A stretch of 64,000 nucleotides of DNA from Acidimicrobiia bacterium (lineage in GTDB: Bacteria; Actinomycetota; Acidimicrobiia; Spongiisociales; UBA5794): the NCBI GenBank assembly GCA_041393965.1, contig JAWKJB010000003.1, positions 261,676 to 325,675 of the forward strand, written 5' to 3'. The notes beneath the pieces are model-generated. The model saw only the letters and a list, made by a program, of their open reading frames with translations, was not told the DNA's origin and made no database searches. Each line of letters opens with the position of its first letter. Position 1 is the first letter of the stretch. Positions 3,491 through 54,185 of the stretch are shown here, piece after piece. The translations under genes were made by a program, and so were the position numbers.

Positions 3491-3628
3491 GGTTGGTTTG
3501 GAGAGTGATCCCGGATGCCCGGATCGGCGCGGCGGGGCTTGACAGGGGGGGGTCCTTGAGAGAATGGAGCGCGGCCCTGCTGTCTTGGCCCGATGCGCGT
3601 CAAGGTGCAGCGGAAGGAGGACCGTCGT

Positions 3629-4699
3629 GTGATGGGTTGGAGCGTTGCGACTCGCAGATTCATGATTCTGGCCATAGCGATTCTGTTGACAAGCAGCGGG
3701 CTGGTGGCGCCCGCGGCGGCCAATCATCGGGAGAACCAGCGCCATTGGCCACTCCTGCAATACAACCACCGCGGCGAGGATGTTGTGGCCGCCCAGCATC
3801 TTCTCAACGGGTGGTCGAGTTCGCCGATCACCGTCGATGGCGTGTTCGGAAGCAACACACAAAACTCCGTCTCCGGCTTTCAAGCATCGCGGGGCCTCAC
3901 TGCATCTGGTCGCATCGATGCCGCGACATGGGGTCGTCTCGCACCGACGATGTCACAGGGGTACCCAATAGCGGCACATGTGAAGGCACTTCAGCACCTG
4001 CTGAACAAGAAGCGCGGTGCCGGCTTGACTGTTGACGGAGTGTTCGGACCAGCCACCCGATCGTCCGTACTCGCATTTCAGCAGCATACTGGTCTCGTCC
4101 AAGATGGGATTGTTGGAGACAACACCTGGAAGGCCCTTGCATGGCACTACATCCAGATGCAGGGCTCGATGCCGAACCTCTGCGAGATCGGATCTCAAGA
4201 CAGCCAAGAGTGGGGGCACGCATCCACGGTGGGTGCCGTGGTCAAGGCCGCTTACTACTTCGACCTCGAGTTCTTCGAGGAACTGCCATTCTGGGACACC
4301 TCGGTGGAGCACGGCTACGAGATTTCCGGGCACAGCAGCCACGAGGTCGGTCTCGATGTGGATATCGGCATCATCCTCGACAGCGGAGAGCATTGCACCG
4401 GAGGAAACCCCGGACGCGGTACGGGGTACACAAGCGGATGGTACAACCTCACTGGAATGGCAGAGCTCATCGACGCCCTCAAACGCGGAGCCGACTTCGG
4501 ATCCAATGGGATGATCTCCGTGATGTACTTCAATGACCCGTTCTTCTATCAGAGTGATCCGCTCGTGCGATACGCAACCAGCCACCACCACCATGTCCAT
4601 GTGCGCTACTGTATGACAACCGACACAACGACCCAGCGACCCCACCATCACTCGGCCAACTGGGACTCGGGAAACCCGCAGTATGGAGGATGCAGCTGA
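3629..4699 (+). CDS. Secreted peptidoglycan hydrolase: two PG-binding domains plus a C-terminal MepA-like (LAS) Zn peptidase
   Basis: AAGGAGG RBS at 3614-3620 before a GTG. Signal peptide ending PAAA. Two 'VDGVFG-T-V-FQ-GL-G--TW' repeats. SHEVGLDVD (H-x6-D) and HVH Zn-ligand motifs. Confidence 0.75.
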   Translation: MMGWSVATRRFMILAIAILLTSSGLVAPAAANHRENQRHWPLLQYNHRGEDVVAAQHLLNGWSSSPITVDGVFGSNTQNSVSGFQASRGLTASGRIDAATWGRLAPTMSQGYPIAAHVKALQHLLNKKRGAGLTVDGVFGPATRSSVLAFQQHTGLVQDGIVGDNTWKALAWHYIQMQGSMPNLCEIGSQDSQEWGHASTVGAVVKAAYYFDLEFFEELPFWDTSVEHGYEISGHSSHEVGLDVDIGIILDSGEHCTGGNPGRGTGYTSGWYNLTGMAELIDALKRGADFGSNGMISVMYFNDPFFYQSDPLVRYATSHHHHVHVRYCMTTDTTTQRPHHHSANWDSGNPQYGGCS

Positions 4700-5943: not shown

Positions 5944-6672
5944 ATGCGGGCTGCACGCCGATCGGTCGTTCTCGCCACGGTCACGGCCATGTTCGTCGCC
6001 ATCATGGCGATACCGGCTGTGGCGGGATCGGCGGGTCAGTTCCTTTCCAAGATCAACGCTTCTCGGTCTGCAGCGGGGCTGGCGCCGCTCGAGGGCTACT
6101 GGGATCTCGCCGATGATGCACGGGCCCATTCGAACCTGATGGCCGACCGGGGCGAGCTCTTCCACAGCTCGAACCTCGGGAGTGTGACGACCGGCTGGGA
6201 GCGGCTCGGGGAGAATGTAGGTGTCGGACTCGATGTGGCGTCCCTCCACGATGCGTTCATGGCCTCGTCTGGCCACCGCAAGAACATCCTCGGTGACTAC
6301 AACTACGCCGGTGTCGGAGTGACCGTCGACGACGAGGGGTTCATGTGGGTCACCGTGATCTTCATGAAGGCCGCACCCGGATTGAACGATCCCGAGGAGA
6401 CGACGACCACGACGGCGCCACCGGCAACGACCACGACGACGACCACGACGACGGCGCCACCGGCAACGACCACGACAACGGCGCCACCGGCAACGACCAC
6501 GACAACGGCGCCACCGGCAACGACCACGACCACAACGCAACCCCCGACGACCACCACGGTGTATCGCAGCGCTGACGGTGTTCCCGGCGAGGATGCGATG
6601 GCTGCACAGCTCGAACTCATCGCTCGCTACCCGAGATTCGGCAATCCGTCCCCCGTCGCCCTGATCGATTGA
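5944..6672 (+). CDS. Secreted CAP (SCP) domain protein with Thr/Pro-rich repeat tail
   Basis: Signal peptide. INASRSAAGLAPL, GENVG and SSGHRKNIL-YNYAGVGV are CAP motifs. Confidence 0.88.
   Translation: MRAARRSVVLATVTAMFVAIMAIPAVAGSAGQFLSKINASRSAAGLAPLEGYWDLADDARAHSNLMADRGELFHSSNLGSVTTGWERLGENVGVGLDVASLHDAFMASSGHRKNILGDYNYAGVGVTVDDEGFMWVTVIFMKAAPGLNDPEETTTTTAPPATTTTTTTTTAPPATTTTTAPPATTTTTAPPATTTTTTQPPTTTTVYRSADGVPGEDAMAAQLELIARYPRFGNPSPVALID
6412..6531 (+). repeat. Coding tandem repeat, four copies of ACGGCGCCACCGGCAACGACCACG (TAPPATT)
   Basis: Copies start at 6412, 6451, 6478 and 6505 (spacing 39, 27, 27). Confidence 0.9.
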
Positions 6673-41238: not shown

Positions 41239-41859
41239 TTACTTGTCCTTCGGCTTCTTGACCTTCACCTTGGTCTTGAGGTCACCCTTTTTGGTCACCC
41301 AACCATCGATCAGGATTTGCTCACCGGTCTCTTCATCGGTGAACTCGAGCTTGATCTTGTTGTCCTTCTCGCTCACGGTCTCCATGTCCCATCCGGCATG
41401 ATCCGCTTTGACGAGGGTGACCTTGTCATCCACGAAGCCGAAGGTGACGAGAACCTTGCCCTTGACCCCGTCGGTCACCGTCGGATAGTCGGGGACAGTG
41501 GTCGTCGTGGTCGTCGTCGGAGGAATCGTCGTCGTGGTCGTCGTGGTGCCGAGGCCGCCGCCGCCTGTTCCGCCTCCGCCGCCACCGGCGGTGGTCGTGG
41601 TGGTCGATGTCGGAGCGATCGTCGTGGTCGGTGCGCCTTCACCGGTCGTGGTCGGTGTCGAGCCAGATCCACCGCCCTGGGATGAGTATGACGCTGCCAC
41701 GGTCTCGAAGTTGTCAGTTGCGGCGTTGCCAACGGCGCTGACCGACACGGATGCGACCATGGCGATGAGTCCAGCCATCAGAGCGTATTCGACGATGCCC
41801 GCCCCGCGTTCATCGCGGATCGCCGTGCGCGCGACTCGGGTGATGTGTCGTGGTTTCAT
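41239..41859 (-). CDS. Flp/Tad-type prepilin N-terminus fused to a Thr/Gly linker and a C-terminal globular domain
   Basis: RDERG|AGIVEYALM class III signal peptide with the E5/Y6 Flp motif, a hydrophobic helix, poly-T/G, then a domain of about 85 aa. Confidence 0.75.
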   Translation of the reverse strand: MKPRHITRVARTAIRDERGAGIVEYALMAGLIAMVASVSVSAVGNAATDNFETVAASYSSQGGGSGSTPTTTGEGAPTTTIAPTSTTTTTAGGGGGGTGGGGLGTTTTTTTIPPTTTTTTTVPDYPTVTDGVKGKVLVTFGFVDDKVTLVKADHAGWDMETVSEKDNKIKLEFTDEETGEQILIDGWVTKKGDLKTKVKVKKPKDK

Positions 41860-46171: not shown

Positions 46172-48175
46172 GTGACGCTCGCGGCGGCGGTTCGGCGTTC
46201 CGTCCAATGGGCGAACCCCGTCACCGGTTCACCCGCGGCGTCGATCGAGACGGTCGCGTTCCTCGAGTCGTTCGGCCCGTCGTTGATGCCTCACACCTCG
46301 ACGCAGCAGGGTGTGGTTGCAGGGCTGTCGGTGCTCGCGGCCCGTGGCACGATGGCGGTGGTCGTGACCCTCACTTCAGCCATCGTGAACGAGGACGATC
46401 CGCTCACGCACCAACTCGGGATGCGTGGGCTCCTCGGTCTCGTTGGCGGGTCCTTCGCTGGCCTCCCTGTTCGGGAAGGCGAATCCCTCAAGAGGGCCGG
46501 TGCCCGGACGGCGGGCCGCCTGCTTCGAACCGGTGCGATGGGCGGGGCGCTCTATGACATCGGACGGTGGGTTCAGCGGCGGTATCCGGCCGCGACGGTG
46601 ACCCGCCCGTTGCTTGTGTCTGCCGCGGCAACAACCGGTGTGCTCGTCTGGGCGAAGAATCGGCTCGACGAACGCGAACGCGACATCGAACGCTGGCCGA
46701 TTCCCCAAGCGAATGAGTTCCTTCCCGGGGTGGCAGTTGGGTACGCGGTGACCGGGATCGGAACCCTTGGAGCAAAGGGATTCCTGTGGTCACGGGCAGG
46801 ATGGATGTCGTTTATGGGTGACTCGTTCCTGCGGCGCCGTCTCGCCGGGGTTGCCAACGCAGCGATGTGGGCTGCGGGCCTTGCCTTTCTCTACAACTCG
46901 GGAGTCGGCTACATCGGGCGAGCCAATGAGAAGATCGAACCCGGCTACGCCCAGATCCCCCCATCGCCGTTCGTGTCCGGCAGCAGCGCAAGCCTCTCCC
47001 CGTTCATCGACCTCGGCCAGCAGGGCCGCCGGTTCGTCACCGATGTCCTCACGCCCGACTTCATCAACGCGACGATGGGCGAGACCGGTGCGATCCATCC
47101 GATCCGGGTGTTCATCGGATACAACTCCGAGCCGCTGTACCCGACCGGTCGGGCGGAGATGGCCCTTGACGAGATGGAACGCGCAGGGGCGTTCGAACGC
47201 GAGTACCTCTTGCTCGTGTCACCGACCGGTACGGGTTGGGTCGACCAAACGATGATCGAGTCGGCGGAGCTGTTCACCCGCGGGGACATCGCATCGGTGT
47301 GCATCCAGTATGGGAAGTTCCCGTCGTTCCTTTCGGTGCAGAAGGTCGCGCTCGGCAGGTCCCAGTTCAGGCTGCTGTTGTGGGGCGTCAAGCAACGACT
47401 CGAGGGGATCCCCGAGCGTGATCGACCCAAGGTTCTCGTCTTCGGCGAGAGCCTCGGCGCGTGGACTTCCAGCGATGTGGTCATGTTCAATGGCATCGAC
47501 GGCTTCGACCACTACGGCATCGACAAGGCGCTGTGGGTAGGGCTCCCCTGGCTCGCGAAGTGGTCAAGAAGCGGTATGACCCGCGGTGCGAGCGACCTTG
47601 TTCCCGTCGGCACCGTCGGAGTATTCGACCACCCGGACGAATACGAGGCGATCGGCGCCGAGGCACGCAAGGCACTGCGGGCCGTTGTGCTGTCTCATGA
47701 CAACGACCCCATCGCCGTGATGGGTCCGGATCTCGCCATCCAGGAGCCCGAATGGCTCCGAGGCGAACGGGGGAGAGGCGTACCTCCCTCAATGCGGTGG
47801 TCCCCGATCGTGACCTTCATCTCGGTCCTGCTCGATGCGGCGAATGCCATGGTCACGGTGCCGGGACACTTCGGGTCGTTCGGCCACGACTACCGGGCAG
47901 ACATGGCACGGTTCGTTCTCGGGGGACTCGACCTCCCGCACGCGACCGAGTCGCAGGTCGTACGGGTGGAATCGGCGTTGGTCGCCCTCGAGATGGAGCG
48001 GTCCGAGCGCATCAACGCGGAGAGCATCGATGCCGCACCACCGCCACCGTCACAGATCTCCCACGGAAACCGTGTGATCAGCGGTGTCCCCCTTCGGGGC
48101 AAGCGCGCCCCTCGGTCCGGGGTGATTCGCGACCTGCTGAAGCGAACGGGCGTCCCTGTGGGAGATGTGCAGTAA
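46172..48175 (+). CDS. Membrane alpha/beta-hydrolase (Abhydrolase_9-like)
   Basis: LGQQGRRFV, PTGTGWVD, QY-PS-LS, GESLG, HDNDPI, GHDY. Confidence 0.8.
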   Translation: MTLAAAVRRSVQWANPVTGSPAASIETVAFLESFGPSLMPHTSTQQGVVAGLSVLAARGTMAVVVTLTSAIVNEDDPLTHQLGMRGLLGLVGGSFAGLPVREGESLKRAGARTAGRLLRTGAMGGALYDIGRWVQRRYPAATVTRPLLVSAAATTGVLVWAKNRLDERERDIERWPIPQANEFLPGVAVGYAVTGIGTLGAKGFLWSRAGWMSFMGDSFLRRRLAGVANAAMWAAGLAFLYNSGVGYIGRANEKIEPGYAQIPPSPFVSGSSASLSPFIDLGQQGRRFVTDVLTPDFINATMGETGAIHPIRVFIGYNSEPLYPTGRAEMALDEMERAGAFEREYLLLVSPTGTGWVDQTMIESAELFTRGDIASVCIQYGKFPSFLSVQKVALGRSQFRLLLWGVKQRLEGIPERDRPKVLVFGESLGAWTSSDVVMFNGIDGFDHYGIDKALWVGLPWLAKWSRSGMTRGASDLVPVGTVGVFDHPDEYEAIGAEARKALRAVVLSHDNDPIAVMGPDLAIQEPEWLRGERGRGVPPSMRWSPIVTFISVLLDAANAMVTVPGHFGSFGHDYRADMARFVLGGLDLPHATESQVVRVESALVALEMERSERINAESIDAAPPPPSQISHGNRVISGVPLRGKRAPRSGVIRDLLKRTGVPVGDVQ

Positions 48176-48247: not shown

Positions 48248-49360
48248 ATGGAACCCGTCGAGCTTCGCGCAATCGTCGCTGATCTCTCGGAGCGCCTTGC
48301 CGATGCTCGATCGTTTCTCGATGTCGACGGCAAGGAAGCCGAGTTGGGCGAGTTGCGTCGGCTGGCGTCGGCACCGGACCTGTGGAACGACAAGGACCGA
48401 GCCCGCGAGGTGACCCGAAAGCTCGCACGATTCGAACGAATCATCGGCCATGTCACCGATCTGGATCGCTCGGTCGAAGATCTCAGCGTCCTCCTCGAAC
48501 TCGCAGTCGACGAGGAGGACGCCGGAGCTCTCGCTGAGGTCGAACAGGAACTCGACGGCCTCGGCAAGGAGGTCGCGACCCTTGAGCGTGAATCGCTGTT
48601 CTTTGGCGAGTACGACGATCGTCCCGCCATCGTGTCGATCTCCGCCGGTGCCGGTGGCGTCGATGCCCAGGACTGGGCCGACATGCTCGTTCGGATGTAT
48701 CACCGGTACCTCGAACGATCGTCGTTCAGCTTCGTGGTCGATGAATACCAGGAAGGGGAGGAGGCAGGGATCAAGTCGGTCACCCTCACGATCACCGGCG
48801 ACAACGCATATGGCACCTTCGAATCCGAACGAGGGACGCACCGGCTCGTGCGGATCAGCCCGTTCGACTCCCAGGCACGGCGCCACACGGCGTTCGCCGG
48901 TGTCGATGTGATCCCGGAAGTCGAAGTCGAGGACCTCGAAATCGATCCGGAGGATCTCCGTATCGACACCTACCGGGCTTCTGGCGCTGGTGGCCAGCAT
49001 GTCAACAAGACGGATTCGGCGGTTCGGATCACCCATCTTCCAACGGGTGTGGTGGTGTCGTGCCAGGCCGAACGGTCCCAGATGCAGAACAAGGCGAGAG
49101 CGATGCAGCTTCTCGCTGCGAGGCTTGCGGAGCGGGCGCGTGAGGAGCAAGCCGAGACAGTCGCTTCGATCCGCGGGGAGCAGCACGAAGCGGGATGGGG
49201 GAGACAGATCCGCTCCTATGTGCTCCAGCCCTACCAGATGGTGAAGGACCTCAGAACGAACTTCGAAGTGGGCGATGTCCAAGGGGTGCTCGACGGTGAC
49301 ATCGATGGACTGATCGATTCCTATCTCCAATGGCGTCGGGCCGAACAGTACGAGGCGTAG
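48248..49360 (+). CDS. prfB: Peptide chain release factor 2 (continuous ORF)
   Basis: SPF recognition loop, GGQ, QIRSYV. No internal frameshift is needed. Confidence 0.97.
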   Translation: MEPVELRAIVADLSERLADARSFLDVDGKEAELGELRRLASAPDLWNDKDRAREVTRKLARFERIIGHVTDLDRSVEDLSVLLELAVDEEDAGALAEVEQELDGLGKEVATLERESLFFGEYDDRPAIVSISAGAGGVDAQDWADMLVRMYHRYLERSSFSFVVDEYQEGEEAGIKSVTLTITGDNAYGTFESERGTHRLVRISPFDSQARRHTAFAGVDVIPEVEVEDLEIDPEDLRIDTYRASGAGGQHVNKTDSAVRITHLPTGVVVSCQAERSQMQNKARAMQLLAARLAERAREEQAETVASIRGEQHEAGWGRQIRSYVLQPYQMVKDLRTNFEVGDVQGVLDGDIDGLIDSYLQWRRAEQYEA

Positions 49361-49385
49361 GAAGCGCCAGCACGGCTGGCGCTTC
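49361..49385 (+). terminator. Perfect 11-bp hairpin after the prfB stop
   Basis: GAAGCGCCAGC-ACG-GCTGGCGCTTC. Confidence 0.65.
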
Positions 49386-49392
49386 AGTTCAC

Positions 49393-49487
49393 TTCACAGT
49401 TCACAGTTGACTGTTCACTGTTGACGGTTCACTGTCGACTGTTGTCTGTTGTCTGTTGTCTGTTGTCTGTTGTCTGTTGACTGTTGA
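49393..49487. repeat. Heptamer tandem array 1 (13 units plus a partial, TTCACAG then TTGACTG/TTGTCTG)
   Basis: Exact 7-nt period. Five consecutive TTGTCTG units at 49442-49476. Confidence 0.92.
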
Positions 49488-49577
49488 TGCAATACCTCGC
49501 GTTGTTGGGATGCACCGCTACCCTCGCCGGTGGCTGCGGAATGGGCCACACGCGTACAGCCATCCCCGAGTTTCTTC

Positions 49578-50477
49578 ATGATCAAACTTGACAATGTCAC
49601 CAAGGTGTACCCCGGCGGCACCGTCGCGGTCAAAGACGCTTCATTCGAGGTGCTCAAGGGCGAGTTCGTCTTTCTCGTCGGAGCGTCCGGATCCGGGAAG
49701 TCCACCCTGATTCGACTGATCATGCGAGAGGAACGCCCGACCAACGGCGACCTCTGGGTCGCGGGAAAGCACGCGTCCGACCTTCCGAATTGGAAGGTGC
49801 CCCACCTGCGTCGCTCGATCGGAACGGTCTTTCAGGACTTCAAGCTCCTCCGGAACAAGACGGTGTACGAGAATGTGGCGTTCGCGATGGAGGTCACCGG
49901 CAAGCATCGTTCGGTGATCCGCAACCAGGTCCCCCAGGTACTCAAGTTGGTCGGCCTCTCGTCGAAGACGGATCGCCTACCCCGACAGCTCTCCGGCGGT
50001 GAGCAGCAGCGAGTCGCCATCGCTCGCGCGTTCGTCAACCGGCCACTGATTCTGCTCGCCGACGAGCCGACAGGGAACCTCGACCCCGCAACATCTGTTG
50101 GCATCATGCGGATCCTTGATCGCATCAACCGAACCGGCACGACGGTCGTGATGGCGACGCACGACCACGCCATCGTCGATGCGATGCGCCGGCGTGTGAT
50201 CGAGATCGATCGGGGAAGGATCAGCAGAGACGAGTCACGAGGCATCTACGAGACCGCCGTCCAGTCGACGGTGCCGATGACCACGGAAGTCGAGGCCGAG
50301 ATACCTGTCGATATGTCTGGGCCCGTCGATGAGGATCCGGTTGTCTTCACGATGGACGACGAGATGCCGCTCGGTGGGCCCGCCGACGATGGGCTTCCCG
50401 AGGGGGAGATCGTTGCCGCCGTGGAACCCGACTCCGCCGAAAGCGTCTCCGACGACGATGCGAGGGACTCTGCGTGA
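49578..50477 (+). CDS. ftsE: Cell division ATP-binding protein FtsE with acidic C-terminal extension
   Basis: [38 protein letters not shown]. Upstream of ftsX. Confidence 0.96.
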
Positions 50478-51364
50478 CCCGGATCGGCTACATGTTCAAG
50501 GAGGCGATCTCCAACCTCGGGCGGAACGCGCTCGTGGTCCTCGGCGCCGTCCTTGCCGTTTTCATCTCGCTGACGCTGACCTTCGGGACCCTTGTCTTTG
50601 GCGAGGTCGTCCGCGTCAACACCCTGCGTTGGGCTGAGGATGTCCGCGTCATCGCGTTTCTCCAAGACGACATGACCGCCCAGGACACGGCCGCCCTGCA
50701 AGCCGAGGTGGCCACATGGCCACAGGTTGCCGATGTGTTCTATGTGTCGAAAGCCGACGCCTTCGACGAAGCACAGATCCTGTTCGCGAACAACGAAGCG
50801 ATGTTGTCCGTCCTCGAGCAGAATCCGGATCTCCTCCCGGCATCGCTTCGGGTGCAGCCGACCGATCCCGACGACTACGACATCCTCGTCACCCGCCTTG
50901 GATCGACGCCGGGAGTCGACAAGGTCCAGAGCGCCGATGCTGCCATCGACGCGATGATCGCCCTGCGAGATGGACTCCAGCTGATGTTCTGGATTCTCGC
51001 TGTTGCGCTCGGAGCTGCCGCGGTGGCGTTGATTGCGAACACAATCCATATGGCGATCTACGCGCGGCGCGACGAGATCGAGATCATGCAGCTCGTCGGC
51101 GCGAGCAACTGGTTCGTCCGAACCCCATTCCTCATCGAGGGAGCGCTCGAAGGGTTCTTCGGTGGGGCGCTGGCGGTTGCTTTCGTCGTCACCGCACAAC
51201 AGTTGGCGGTTGACCGTCTCCAGGATCTGCCCGATTGGATCAATCTGGCGATCGACAACGACTTCCTCCTCAAGCAGGGTGTGCTGGTCCTGCTGTTTGG
51301 TGTAGCTGCCGGCCTCGTCGGCAGCTCCTTGAGCCTTGCAGTCCACCGCACCCTGCGTTCATGA
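50474..51364 (+). CDS. ftsX: Cell division permease FtsX
   Basis: Four [32 protein letters not shown]. Confidence 0.95.
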
Positions 51365-52548
51365 TTCGCCGCGCCCTTCTCGTCACCGTTGCTGTTTCCC
51401 TCCTGATCGGTGCTGCGCCTGCCACCGCAGGTGATCTCGACGATGATCTCGCAGCGGTGCGGGCACGAATCACATCGTTGCGTTCGCAGCTGTCGGATCA
51501 ACAGGGGGTTCGGACGCCGATCGTTGAAGAGGTCCTCGCGGCCCAGACGCTTGTCGATTCCGCAGCAGCAGATCTGGCCACTGCAACAACCGCGTACAAC
51601 GACGCCGTCACCGCGGAGGCGGCAGCACGCACGCGGCTGGATGTCGTTCGCGAGGAGCTTGCGGTGCGGTTTGCGCACCTCGCCGCGCTGCGATCCGATG
51701 TCGACGCGGCGCGGACGGAGGCCAAGGCGTGGGCTCGCGAGGCGTACACAAGGGGTGGCATGGCCGAACCTGCCATCGCCTTTTCGGTGCCTGCGCTCGC
51801 CGACATCGCGGTCGGGGTCGCCTATCTCGATGTTCTGACCGGTGTCTCGTCCGATGCCGCCGATCGATTCCAGCTTCTCGTCGACGCCGAGGCGATCGAG
51901 GAGGCCAAGGTCAAGGCCGTCGAGGCCGAACTCGAGCACCAGATCGCGGCCCTGGAACTGTCCCAGTCCGACCTCGCGACGGCGATCTCTGCCCTTGATG
52001 CCCATCGAGCCACCCTTCAGACGGCTGCCGACGCGCAGCAGGCGCGTCTCGATGAGATCGACGCAAGGATTGACGAGTTCGAATCGGAGATCTCGGCGCT
52101 CGCCCGTGAGGAGTCCTCCATCAAGGCCGCGATCTACGCGGCGTCACATCCGACGCCGAGTTCGTCTGGGGCTCTCATCCGGCCGGTGCCGGGCGCCATC
52201 TCCTCGGGGTTCGGCAAGAGGGTGCATCCCATCACCGGAGGCATCAAGATGCACAACGGTGTCGATATGAACGCCCACCACGGCGATCCCATCCGCGCAG
52301 CGGGGGATGGTGTGGTGATCCTGTCGGGCGTCAAGGGCGGCTACGGCAACACGGTGATGATCGACCACGGGGGTGGGATGGTGACGCTCTACGCGCATCA
52401 GTCCAAGCTTGGTGTGTCGGTCGGCCAGCATGTCTCACAGGGGCAGGTGATCGGGTGGGTGGGCTCGACCGGTCAATCGACCGGTCCCCATCTGCACTTC
52501 GAGGTCCGGATCAACGGAACACCCAGAAACCCGGTCAACTACTGGTGA
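51361..52548 (+). CDS. Coiled-coil plus M23 peptidase (EnvC/RipC-like FtsEX partner)
   Basis: Signal peptide, long coiled coil, [24 protein letters not shown]. Confidence 0.93.
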
Positions 52549-52550
52549 GC

Positions 52551-52808
52551 AGATAGCAGATATCAGATATCAGATATCAGATATCAGACATGAGATACCA
52601 GACATCAGATATCAGACATCTGGCATCTGAGATCTGAGATCTGGCATCTGGCATCTGGCATCTGGCATCTGGCATCTGGCATCTGGCATCTGGCTTCTGG
52701 CTTCTGGCTTCTGGCTTCTGGCATCTGGCATCTGGGATCTGAGATCTGAGATCTGGCTTCTGGCATCTGACATCTGGCTTCTGGCATCTGGCATCTGACA
52801 TCTGGCAC
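52551..52808. repeat. Heptamer tandem array 2, inverted two-arm structure
   Basis: 10 units of AGA(T/C)ATC-type (52551-52620), then 26 units of TGGCATC/TGGCTTC/TGAGATC/TGACATC-type (52621-52802) plus a partial. The arms are complementary through CAGA(T)/(A)TCTG. Confidence 0.95.
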
Positions 52809-52821
52809 TAGCCTCCGGGTG

Positions 52822-53277
52822 ATGGGTGGGCGCAAGGTCGTTGCAACGAATCGTCAGGCGCGGTTCAACTACGAGATTCTCGATACCTTCGAGGCCGGTA
52901 TGGTCTTGAGGGGCTCGGAGGTCAAGTCGCTGCGTGCTGGCCAGGCCCAGTTGAAGGACTCCTACGCCGACATCCGCGACGGCGAGGTGTGGCTCGTCGG
53001 AGCGCACATCTCTCCGTACAAGTTCGCGGACAACGGAGGACATGACCCGGAACGCCAACGCAAGTTGCTCTTGCACCGCCGCGAGATCGATCGCCTCTTC
53101 GGCCGCATCCGCGAGGAGGGACTGACCTTGGTTCCGACCCAGATCTACTTTGCTGAAGGTCGAGCCAAGGTTGAGCTCGCGCTCGGCAAGGGGAAGCGGC
53201 GCCATGACAAGCGCAGAACGATCGTCGAGCGACAACAACAACGGGAGATGGACCGCGCTCGGAGCCACCGACGATAG
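52822..53277 (+). CDS. smpB: SsrA-binding protein
   Basis: ATNRQARFNY, EAGMVLRGSEVKSLR, R-RKLLLH, LGKGKRRHDKR. TAGCCT lies 7 nt before the ATG. Confidence 0.97.
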   Translation: MGGRKVVATNRQARFNYEILDTFEAGMVLRGSEVKSLRAGQAQLKDSYADIRDGEVWLVGAHISPYKFADNGGHDPERQRKLLLHRREIDRLFGRIREEGLTLVPTQIYFAEGRAKVELALGKGKRRHDKRRTIVERQQQREMDRARSHRR

Positions 53278-53294
53278 ACGCCGCAAGCAGCGCG

Positions 53295-54185
53295 CTATGC
53301 GCCGATGTTCTCGACCTGCTCGAAGAGTTCCTCGATATGATCGGTTTGGAGCAGCCCTGGGGCACGGAGGAGGACCTCGCCGCTGCCGCTGGTCACGACC
53401 CAGAACGGGAAGGCGGAGACCCCCATCTTGGCCGCCATTCGATTCGATGCATCGACCACGATCGGAAACGGGAAGTCACCGTTGTCGAGATACGCGTCAA
53501 GCGGATTCCCACGGGATGGATCGATGCTCGTCGTCACGGTCACGAGTTCGGTCTCGTACCGTTCTGACGCTTCCGGGTACCAGTCCGAGAGCAGCGGGAT
53601 CTCCTGTTGGCAGTACGGGCACCAATGCGCCCAGACCATCCAGACGCGCCGTGTTCCGTCGGCCGGATCGATCGAAACCGGTTGATCCGTGTAGGCGTCG
53701 GTGCCTTCGATTGTGCCCATCGTCATGCCGAGGGCTTGATCCGGCGCGTCGCGTTCGAAGCGGGGGAGGTATCCGGCCGGCACGGACGCTGCTGGTGGTT
53801 CGATGGTGCTTGCCCCACCGGCCTCGGCTTGCGGGGCGAGGACGAGCGCTTGCACGCTTGTGCCGAGATCGGCGATGTCCTTCGCAAGTCCATTGATCTC
53901 GTCGCCGATCGACTCGACCTGTCCGGCCAAGGTCTCGTTGAGTGATTCGATTCCTGCTCGGTTCTCGTTGAGGGCGTTGAGCGTGAGGATCTGTGCGGTG
54001 ATGAGTCCCGCGACGACGAGCGCGGCGACCGCGATGACTCCGATCATCCACCTGGGGAGTGTGCTCGAACCCGTGTCTCGTACCGAGGCGGCGGCGATGT
54101 CTCTTGCAACCGTCCCTTCCTGGGAGTCAGGGTCGTGCTTGGCTGTGCCGTCGGACGCGTCGGGTTCGCTCGGAGTCTCGTGCAT
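53295..54185 (-). CDS. Membrane-anchored TlpA-like thioredoxin
   Basis: Single TM, coiled coil, WAHWCPYC, FPFWVV. Confidence 0.82.
   Translation of the reverse strand: MHETPSEPDASDGTAKHDPDSQEGTVARDIAAASVRDTGSSTLPRWMIGVIAVAALVVAGLITAQILTLNALNENRAGIESLNETLAGQVESIGDEINGLAKDIADLGTSVQALVLAPQAEAGGASTIEPPAASVPAGYLPRFERDAPDQALGMTMGTIEGTDAYTDQPVSIDPADGTRRVWMVWAHWCPYCQQEIPLLSDWYPEASERYETELVTVTTSIDPSRGNPLDAYLDNGDFPFPIVVDASNRMAAKMGVSAFPFWVVTSGSGEVLLRAPGLLQTDHIEELFEQVENIGA

Follow-up and report, generated by a model that had tools for sequence, protein, structure and literature searches.

The window analysed here, a stretch of 64,000 nucleotides with a G+C content of 63.8%, is part of contig JAWKJB010000003.1 of an Acidimicrobiia metagenome-assembled genome (MAG). 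The genes prfB, ftsE, ftsX, an M23 peptidase gene and smpB follow one another in this order, and the tmRNA gene is located about 1 kb beyond (Table 1). Tandem heptanucleotide arrays were found in two intergenic gaps of this region, between prfB and ftsE (array 1) and between the M23 peptidase gene and smpB (array 2). The present analysis concerns mainly array 2. The gap in which it lies extends over 273 bp from the M23 stop codon TGA (52546-52548) to the smpB start codon at 52822. The nearest SmpB proteins (89% identity) all came from Acidimicrobiia MAGs.

Array 2 comprises 259 bp (52549-52807) and consists of 37 head-to-tail heptamers in a single unbroken phase. Its first base is the base directly after the M23 stop codon, and its last unit is followed by a C and then by the hexamer TAGCCT. 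Period-7 repeats were reported by Tandem Repeats Finder at 52550-52620 (10.1 copies) and at 52617-52807 (27.3 copies, 90% matches, score 263). Cutting of the region into 7-mers resulted in ten units of the type TCAGAYA followed by 27 units of the type TCTGRNW. The first half, termed CAG-type, is composed of GCAGATA (two units), TCAGATA (four), TCAGACA (two), TGAGATA and CCAGACA (one each). The second, CTG-type half contains fifteen TCTGGCA (A), four TCTGAGA (B), five TCTGGCT (C), one TCTGGGA (D) and two TCTGACA (E) units, and its unit order was recorded as A B B A7 C4 A2 D B B C A E C A A E A. The phased TCNG pattern TCNGNNNTCNGNNNTCNG was matched 40 times in the window at an expectation of 1.96, and 37 of the 40 matches were located within arrays 1 and 2. 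An earlier note, prepared from the sequence alone, had described a heptamer array with block-wise variation that fills the whole space between the M23 stop and the smpB -10 hexamer. Its coordinates, period and phase were confirmed, as were its ten initial units and the filling of the gap up to 1 nt before TAGCCT; the number of units after the switch was corrected from 26 to 27. Three minus-strand open reading frames (ORFs) at 52577-52801, 52605-52835 and 52612-53286 were regarded as by-products of the stop-free repeat and of the antisense strand of smpB.

The two halves of array 2 are distinguished by a single base. The heptamers ACATCAG (52602-52608) and ACATCTG (52616-52622) differ only at position 52621, and when read as NNATC[A/T]G the whole array is one repeat. 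Since TCAGA and TCTGA are reverse complements, and since a central A/T change leaves the phase undisturbed, the two arms are partly complementary with the phase intact. The arms are not an inverted duplication; they go back to one A-to-T substitution at the centre of a quasi-palindromic unit. The switch point given in the earlier note (52620/52621) matches this base, but what had been taken for an abrupt change to complementary-sense units involves no inverted arm. Beyond this core the arms match poorly: one of the two variable positions per heptad can pair (as G-U in RNA), and the other never pairs. A mutational bias towards the CAG-to-CTG toggle was rejected, as it accounted for 3 of the 94 single-site changes counted in unselected Acidimicrobiia arrays. 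The most variable site in these arrays was the centre of CNG, with 23 of the 94 changes.

Table 1. Positions of genes, arrays and putative signals in the prfB-smpB region of the window
Feature	Position	Strand	Basis
prfB (peptide chain release factor 2)	48248..49360	+	Pfam PCRF and RF-1 domains
Perfect 11-bp GC-rich hairpin GAAGCGCCAGC-ACG-GCTGGCGCTTC, terminator-like	49361..49385	+	Sequence; directly after prfB stop
Array 1, about 14.5 heptamer units of the types AGTTCAC, TGTTGAC and TGTTGTC	49386..49487		Tandem Repeats Finder, period 7
Conserved ftsE upstream block, TACCCT at 49519-49524 and leader	49488..49578	+	Common to the related loci L008, L211, L213 and L215
ftsE (ABC ATPase)	49579..50477	+	Pfam ABC_tran; ATG start inferred from sequence and relatives
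ftsX	50474..51364	+	Pfam FtsX_ECD and FtsX
M23 peptidase (EnvC/NlpD-like), 395 aa	51361..52548	+	Pfam Peptidase_M23, translation, homologues
Array 2, CAG-type half, 10 units	52549..52618		7-mer division starting at 52549
Array 2, CTG-type half, 27 units	52619..52807		Tandem Repeats Finder and 7-mer cut; 3' 115 nt in contig L001
Toggle base, T replacing the A of every preceding unit	52621		Direct sequence reading; ACATCAG to ACATCTG
TAGCCT, putative -10 hexamer of smpB	52809..52814	+	Conservation in related loci; 7 nt before ATG
smpB	52822..53277	+	Pfam SmpB; exact product in public assembly
tmRNA (ssrA), tag ADNESYALAA	54301..54657	+	Rfam RF00023, 168 bits; ARAGORN

Repeats of this kind break short-read assemblies, and a collapsed, expanded or chimeric repeat was therefore considered. 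A contig from the Logan assembly of run SRR28338160 (L001, 1048 nt) ends inside array 2; it breaks off exactly at the run of seven identical TCTGGCA units, and the copy number of that run lies outside its support. This independent contig is, however, 100% identical to window positions 52693-53740 and covers the last 115 nt of array 2, with the irregular unit order included. The longest perfect run in array 2 is just 49 nt, and comparable arrays occur in many independent assemblies. An assembly artefact is hardly credible on these grounds.

The hexamer TAGCCT was compared among related loci. A TANNNT motif was located 6-8 nt 5' of the smpB start codon in 28 of 31 loci (TAGCCT in 22), and no Shine-Dalgarno sequence upstream of smpB was seen in the related loci compared. 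Promoters that consist of a -10 element only and give rise to leaderless transcripts are established in Actinobacteria. Because of the conserved TANNNT near the ATG and the lack of a Shine-Dalgarno sequence, smpB is probably leaderless in this Acidimicrobiia clade. The conservation lends good support to the earlier assignment of TAGCCT as the smpB -10, and a promoter function of the hexamer would agree with what is generally known of actinobacterial promoters. With just 7 nt from the -10 to the ATG, smpB would be transcribed without an untranslated region (UTR). The leaderless signature is kept even where the gap to the M23 gene is only 22 bp.

Both arrays abut promoters, and they are AT-richer than the genome (49.6% versus 63.8% G+C). 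Several of their units (CTGACA and CTGGCA; TTGACT in array 1) resemble the -35 hexamer TTGACA. These features are consistent with a lattice of protein-binding sites at the DNA level, recognised by sigma region 4, a response regulator or a nucleoid protein, that would tune the smpB and ftsE promoters, the number of units acting as a heritable dial in the style of a contingency locus. The TCNG core in 22 of 26 arrays of the clade fits this as well. Tandem heptamers of Geobacter with the consensus MTYCTGA have been proposed as regulator sites (PMC2700814), and hmw expression in Haemophilus depends on the number of heptamers (PMC12721329). However, the distances of the -35-like hexamers of array 2 from the -10 are 1, 8, 15 or 22 nt, none of them within 16-18 nt, and no sigma-70 promoter was found inside array 2 by the promoter scan. 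Furthermore, a change in unit number leaves the spacing downstream of the array unaltered, the unit sequences at the same promoter are wholly different between relatives, and no candidate binding protein was identified. A binding lattice is thus regarded as very unlikely. Units resembling the -35 hexamer (TTGACT, TTGACG, CTGACA and exact TTGACA) were observed in arrays 1 and 2 and in the related loci L019 (10452-10485) and L025 (7464-7491), at inconsistent spacing to the nearest -10.

The second array, which had been described about 3 kb upstream with the same period and flip, is real. As in array 2, CAG gives way in phase to CTG in array 1, at 49405/49412 (junction found at 49397), and array 1 contains the heptamer ACTGTTG. 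It stops exactly at the start of the conserved ftsE upstream block, which reads GCAATACCTCG..., TACCCT, GGCTGCGGAATGGGCC...CAGCC, followed by the ATG at 49579. This block may represent a promoter with a structured leader; no Rfam family was matched by it. The order after prfB is terminator-like hairpin, heptamers, promoter. In relatives, comparable GC hairpins are present in the prfB-ftsE gap, and in L008 this gap also carries a small two-armed heptamer array. An alpha/beta-hydrolase gene (Abhydrolase_9) is inserted between secA and prfB in the window (46172-48175), in L211 (2988-5036) and in L213 (4808-6841), and was not found in L002, L004 and L008. The assemblies L008, L009 and L010 represent one strain.

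The M23-smpB gap was compared with 28 relatives from the genome collection (L011-L038), of which 26 carry the M23 gene directly upstream of smpB. As had been expected in the earlier note, both empty and filled sites were found. The gap measures 21-23 bp in 12 of the 26 relatives, and in the closest ones it reads GGCGGCTTG-TAGCCT-CCGCGCC-ATG. Gaps of more than 150 bp are restricted to the window and to L017 (234 bp), L014 (175 bp), L023 (167 bp) and L022 (342 bp, listed jointly with L215). The L017 gap holds 14 TTCAGTC units facing 13 CTGAGAA/CTGACAA units; this array is truly inverted and two-armed, is shifted in phase by 1 nt, and folds at -96 kcal/mol (z -13). In L014, a hairpin with G6/C6 core is followed by three GTCTGAA and three ATCGGTC units, and the L022/L215 gap is occupied by G6/C6 hairpin elements. 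The L023 gap contains arrays of periods 7 and 8, the heptamers CCAGATT and TCCGATC adjoining a period-8 array of five CCCTTTGT units (3610-3778); period 7 is therefore not exclusive in the clade. A gap of 62 bp in L021 contains a GC hairpin, then GGGTTTCTGAC and TTCTGAC, with two copies of TTCTGAC in all and a GTCAG after them. Units of the type TCGGTCA are also carried by relatives. Judged from this comparison, the ancestral gap is 22 bp long and was expanded only in some lineages, by different repeats in each. Because it is absent from most relatives, which have kept the 22-bp gap, array 2 has no conserved role.

Among the tandem repeats detected in 417 kb of related DNA, period 7 was more frequent than any other (19 of 68 Tandem Repeats Finder clusters), and in a separate period-7 scan of related loci a TCNG core was present in 22 of 26 heptamer arrays, versus 19% expected. 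The density of arrays amounts to two in the 64-kb window and to 3-6 per 20 kb in L014 and L021.

A dispersed element of 130-200 nt was encountered in the sister genomes. It consists of G6/C6 hairpins (CGTCCCCCCG...CGGGGGGACG), followed by GGGTTTGAACC and TCTGAC-type heptamer flanks, and was located in L021, which equals L008 (219-520, 2640-2860 and 10480-10730), in L014 (9860-9920) and in the M23-smpB gaps of L022/L215. Two of its copies, each of 128 nt, share 89% identity, and no Rfam match was obtained. The arrays might be remnants or outgrowths of this possibly mobile element, its hairpin core having since been lost. Heptamers do adjoin copies of CGTCCCCCCG...CGGGGGGACG-GGGTTTGAACC-(TCTGAC)n in L021 and L014, the element occurs in the M23-smpB gaps of L014 and L022, and the L021 gap combines a hairpin with GGGTTTCTGAC and TTCTGAC. 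In the window, however, the G6/C6 core is missing (11 one-mismatch matches versus 20 expected by chance), and no dispersed repeat family was found there. Neither target-site duplications nor terminal inverted repeats surround the arrays, and no transposase was detected among the five array-flanking genes by Pfam, the rest of the window not having been scanned for one. Such an origin, which we consider improbable, would explain at most the seed and not the expansion to 37 units; for this reason it is compatible with growth of the array in place by slippage, as discussed below. Two further tandem-repeat regions of the window (6399-6558 and 41498-41587) have periods of 27, 39 and 54 nt (GAC/CAC/GGC-rich) and of 9 nt (GTC/GTG). 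Their periods, all divisible by three, suggest coding repeats, and the two regions are partly reverse-complementary to one another.

Folding energies were calculated for the symmetric part of array 2 and for larger segments. The segment 52549-52690 reached -62.1 kcal/mol as sense RNA (z -5.2 against dinucleotide shuffles), -70.5 kcal/mol as antisense RNA (z -6.2) and -27 kcal/mol as DNA (z -1.7). The whole region of 291 nt (52540-52830) gave -108.7 kcal/mol at z -0.54, again with dinucleotide shuffles, and the complete array (52549-52808) gave -95.6 kcal/mol at z -4.4 with mononucleotide shuffles. Array 1 folded weakly (-28.6 kcal/mol, z -1.7). The long RNA hairpin that had been postulated for array 2 thus holds for the symmetric part, which folds well, and does not hold for the 291-nt region, which is no more stable than its shuffles. 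A DNA cruciform, postulated together with the hairpin, is unlikely because every heptad contains a mismatch and the DNA fold is marginal.

Sense and antisense folds were about equal in array 2 and in the arrays of L017, L008 and L014, so that there was no evidence for a structure of the transcribed strand, and a strand-specific RNA structure based on G-U asymmetry was rejected. An intrinsic terminator was likewise rejected, as neither a terminator-like site nor a T-run was present within 52549-52814. Searches against Rfam 15 at gathering thresholds matched only the tmRNA in the window, and at E<=1 only chance matches to miRNA hairpins were added, with 21-24 bits at gathering scores of 48-109. 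No known RNA family is therefore represented in the array region by a covariance-model match.

Arrays with the same architecture were sought in metagenomes with the in-phase pattern (TCAGNNN)3(TCTGNNN)3, for which about 0.01 matches are expected by chance according to our own estimate. At least 120 contigs with G+C contents from 33% to 73% carry such arrays, and 80 contigs retrieved among the matches listed were used for the following comparisons. The variable positions were the same in both halves in 42, 38 and 42 of the 80 contigs (about 50%), and two of them were complementary between the halves in 24 and 26 (about 31%), versus 20 expected (25%). The lengths of the arms were uncorrelated (rho 0.08). 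In many of the contigs the halves differ only at the central base; in one example, seven TCAGTCT units are followed by six TCTGTCT units. The excess of same over complementary positions and the uncorrelated arm lengths argue against selection for structure, and the class looks like a mosaic of unit variants whose halves are related by descent rather than like a designed hairpin. A true inversion as the origin of the arms is disfavoured by the same comparison, which points to descent and toggle, with L017 as the exception. A fixed polarity with the CAG half first was rejected: among arrays not selected by the pattern, junctions of the reverse order were as common or commoner (13 versus 6). According to a crude ORF model, the arrays of the 80 contigs occupy tandem, convergent and divergent gaps. 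A phage origin was also discarded, as a scan of viral contigs gave no match to the architecture.

Other heptamer arrays were met through loci carrying smpB. A 13.6-copy TTTTAGC array is located about 90 nt upstream of smpB in a cyanobacterial MAG of the Pseudanabaenaceae (L073, 9817-9911), beside the same gene as array 2 but in another phylum and with another unit. Clusters of several different heptamer arrays within 1.5 kb were seen in the MAG 'bacterium bin582' (L051, 11938-13440) and in an Acidobacteria MAG (L044, 19777-20175). The phyla are unrelated, and these two clusters were encountered only through their smpB loci.

The folding and comparative data bear on whether selection has kept both halves of array 2 so that the ftsEX-M23 mRNA can fold into a long hairpin at its 3' end. 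Such a hairpin might act as a terminator without U-tract, as a barrier to 3' exonucleases or as an RNase III site, and would guard the upstream message and prevent occlusion of the leaderless smpB promoter by polymerases reading through. The stable fold of 52549-52690, the two-armed array of L017, which is of independent origin, strongly paired and located in this same gap, and the other hairpins directly after the M23 stop in L021, L014, L022 and L023 speak for it. The similar metagenome arrays are weakly biased to stop codons, and there are precedents in hairpins of the cyanobacterial STRR repeats (PMC2670836) and in the RNase III-processed hmw hairpin (PMC12721329). On the other hand, with 10 units in one arm and 27 in the other, 17 units lack a partner, one of the variable positions in each heptad is always unpaired, and the full region is no stabler than dinucleotide shuffles. 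Neither a sense/antisense asymmetry nor a T-run or terminator-like site was found in array 2. At the level of the class, the arms are not complementary beyond the core and their lengths do not correlate. Many relatives have a 22-bp gap and no hairpin, and array 1 follows a separate perfect terminator-like hairpin and itself folds weakly. A hairpin maintained by selection is accordingly a possible but unlikely explanation.

The earlier note had proposed an uncharacterised, structure-defined class of intergenic element. This proposal is not supported, since intergenic heptanucleotide repeats have already been described under several names (LSSR, STRR, TAACTGA, hmw). Array 2 is real and striking, is not categorically new, and belongs to the bacterial heptanucleotide repeats. 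Heptanucleotide repeats outnumber every other class of long simple-sequence repeats (LSSR) across most bacterial genomes, and polymerase slippage was proposed for their dominance (Mrazek, Guo and Shah 2007, as cited in PMC4679880 and PMC4692102). Array 2 resembles the LSSR of these secondary accounts in its head-to-tail heptamers, which form a tandem run beyond chance in a non-coding position, here bounded by the M23 stop (52548) and the smpB ATG. The LSSR are further described there as sporadic among lineages, Actinobacteria included, as variable between relatives and as ascribed to slippage. Unlike LSSR, array 2 joins two unit types that are near-complements of each other. No description of heptamer repeats in Acidimicrobiia was found in the literature.

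The cyanobacterial STRR are intergenic 7-bp units that form hairpin loops, as between hupS and hupL and in the hoxW promoter; transcript stabilisation was proposed for them, and their function is given as unknown (PMC2670836). Array 2 shares the 7-nt unit, the intergenic position and the hairpin potential, but its units (TCAGATA/TCTGGCA) are found in an Acidimicrobiia MAG and not in a cyanobacterium. STRR units are CCCCAGT, TTGGTCA and CAACAGT, which our literature search did not confirm; the heptamer ACTGTTG of array 1 is complementary to the last of these, and TCGGTCA occurs in relatives.

In Haemophilus influenzae hmw1A and hmw2A, the 5' UTR contains a hairpin whose left arm is made up of ten ATCTTTC units; RNase III cleaves this hairpin, and the number of heptamers controls expression (PMC12721329). 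Array 2 is similarly a heptamer repeat next to a promoter. However, the hmw units belong to the 5' UTR of the regulated gene, and their pairing partner is a G-rich arm that is not a repeat, whereas in array 2 both arms are repeats. Array 2 ends 1 nt upstream of the -10 and, smpB being probably leaderless, would not be part of the smpB mRNA. It involves no phase-variable surface protein, and RNase III processing and the effect of repeat number are results for hmw and not for array 2.

Direct TAACTGA repeats are distributed among Beggiatoaceae, Cyanobacteria and Bacteroidetes (PMC4679880), and Geobacter metallireducens contains five MTYCTGA units proposed as regulator sites (PMC2700814); translational or global regulators were suggested for these two groups of repeats (PMC4679880, PMC2700814). 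They resemble array 2 in their intergenic position, CTGA core, mixed heptamers, 7-nt indels and absence from the same gap of close relatives. They differ from it in having mostly 2-6 copies in one orientation directly 5' of start codons. In Xanthomonas (GGGAATC) and Nostoc (GGGGAYT), 2-26 intergenic units vary in length and sequence, and some inverted pairs are able to form stem-loops (PMC4692102). These repeats are G-rich and form quadruplexes, whereas the units of array 2 have no G-runs. REP/BIME palindromes are, like array 2, extragenic, hairpin-capable and placed after stop codons, but REP are dispersed copies of a conserved palindrome of 20-40 nt, whereas array 2 is built of tandem 7-mers with no dispersed copy in the window. 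No dispersed family of the REP or MITE kind includes the arrays, and the empty site GGCGGCTTG was replaced without duplication.

At a probability of roughly 0.6, array 2 is best explained as a heptanucleotide simple-sequence repeat of the LSSR/STRR kind that has grown by slippage and fills the unconstrained spacer between the M23 stop and the smpB -10. Replication slippage would have lengthened it in situ, starting from a short seed of the TCTGAC type; such seeds still occur at this position in sister genomes. The expanding array would have filled the sole unconstrained DNA between the M23 stop and the conserved TAGCCT-N7-ATG. A central A/T change, itself spread by slippage, would then have produced a block of units partly complementary to the other block. 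Slippage is supported by the blocks of identical units and the repeated motifs (A B B ... D B B; C A E / C A A E), which are typical of this process, and indirectly by the turnover of the repeats between species. Each of the two window arrays breaks off precisely at the start of conserved promoter sequence. Transcripts that read through from ftsEX-M23 could fold into a long imperfect hairpin with 5-6 pairs per heptad, which may serve as a 3' exonuclease barrier or as a site for a double-strand RNase and separate the upstream unit from the smpB promoter. This hairpin is probably a by-product of the array rather than the reason for it. Among the functions and origins listed in the earlier note, the footprint of a repeat-generating process comes closest to the evidence.

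Several observations weigh against growth of array 2 by slippage. The symmetric part is more stable as RNA than dinucleotide shuffles on both strands (z -5.2 and -6.2). The more distant relative L017 has a stable inverted array in the same gap, which looks like convergence on a hairpin, and some strong hairpin is present in every strongly expanded gap of the clade. Metagenome arrays lean weakly to stop over start codons (18 of 27 tandem gaps) and to convergent over divergent gaps (11 versus 7), both by the crude ORF model. Slippage was deduced from distant comparisons: the nearest M23 homologue in the collections searched, which include no close relative of the window genome, is 70% identical, and an exact scan of metagenomes with the right flank of the window locus gave no match. 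Similarly, the M23 product had no exact record in public assemblies, and the exact look-up of SmpB led to one short contig only. Finally, slippage leaves the 7-nt unit and the favoured TCNG cores unexplained.

With regard to these cores, TC-N-G arrays could also be acted on, or produced, by a dedicated system that recognises their sequence and is found across phyla, such as a protein or ribonucleoprotein with one bound unit every 7 nt, or a unit-adding enzyme. Lack of contact would leave the central base free to toggle, and the hairpin-capable CAG/CTG mosaics would act as functional insulators between transcription units. This proposal is improbable. It was kept open because of the core bias (22 of 26), the variable CNG centre (23 of 94), the at least 120 contigs and the independent array of L017.

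If array 2 is a slippage-grown repeat, a two-armed repeat can arise without inversion and without selection for structure, one central substitution in a quasi-palindromic unit and subsequent slippage being sufficient, which is of note for the scoring of such arrays as possible structured RNAs. For annotation, the conserved TAGCCT-N7-ATG can be used as the putative leaderless promoter of smpB. The phenomenon of heptanucleotide repeats is extended to uncultured Acidimicrobiia, and in-phase CAG/CTG mosaics are common in environmental genomes. This lineage provides a compact comparative system, with empty, seeded and expanded versions of one gap beside a fixed, probably leaderless promoter, in which the questions raised in 2007, why 7 nt and why certain cores, may be addressed.

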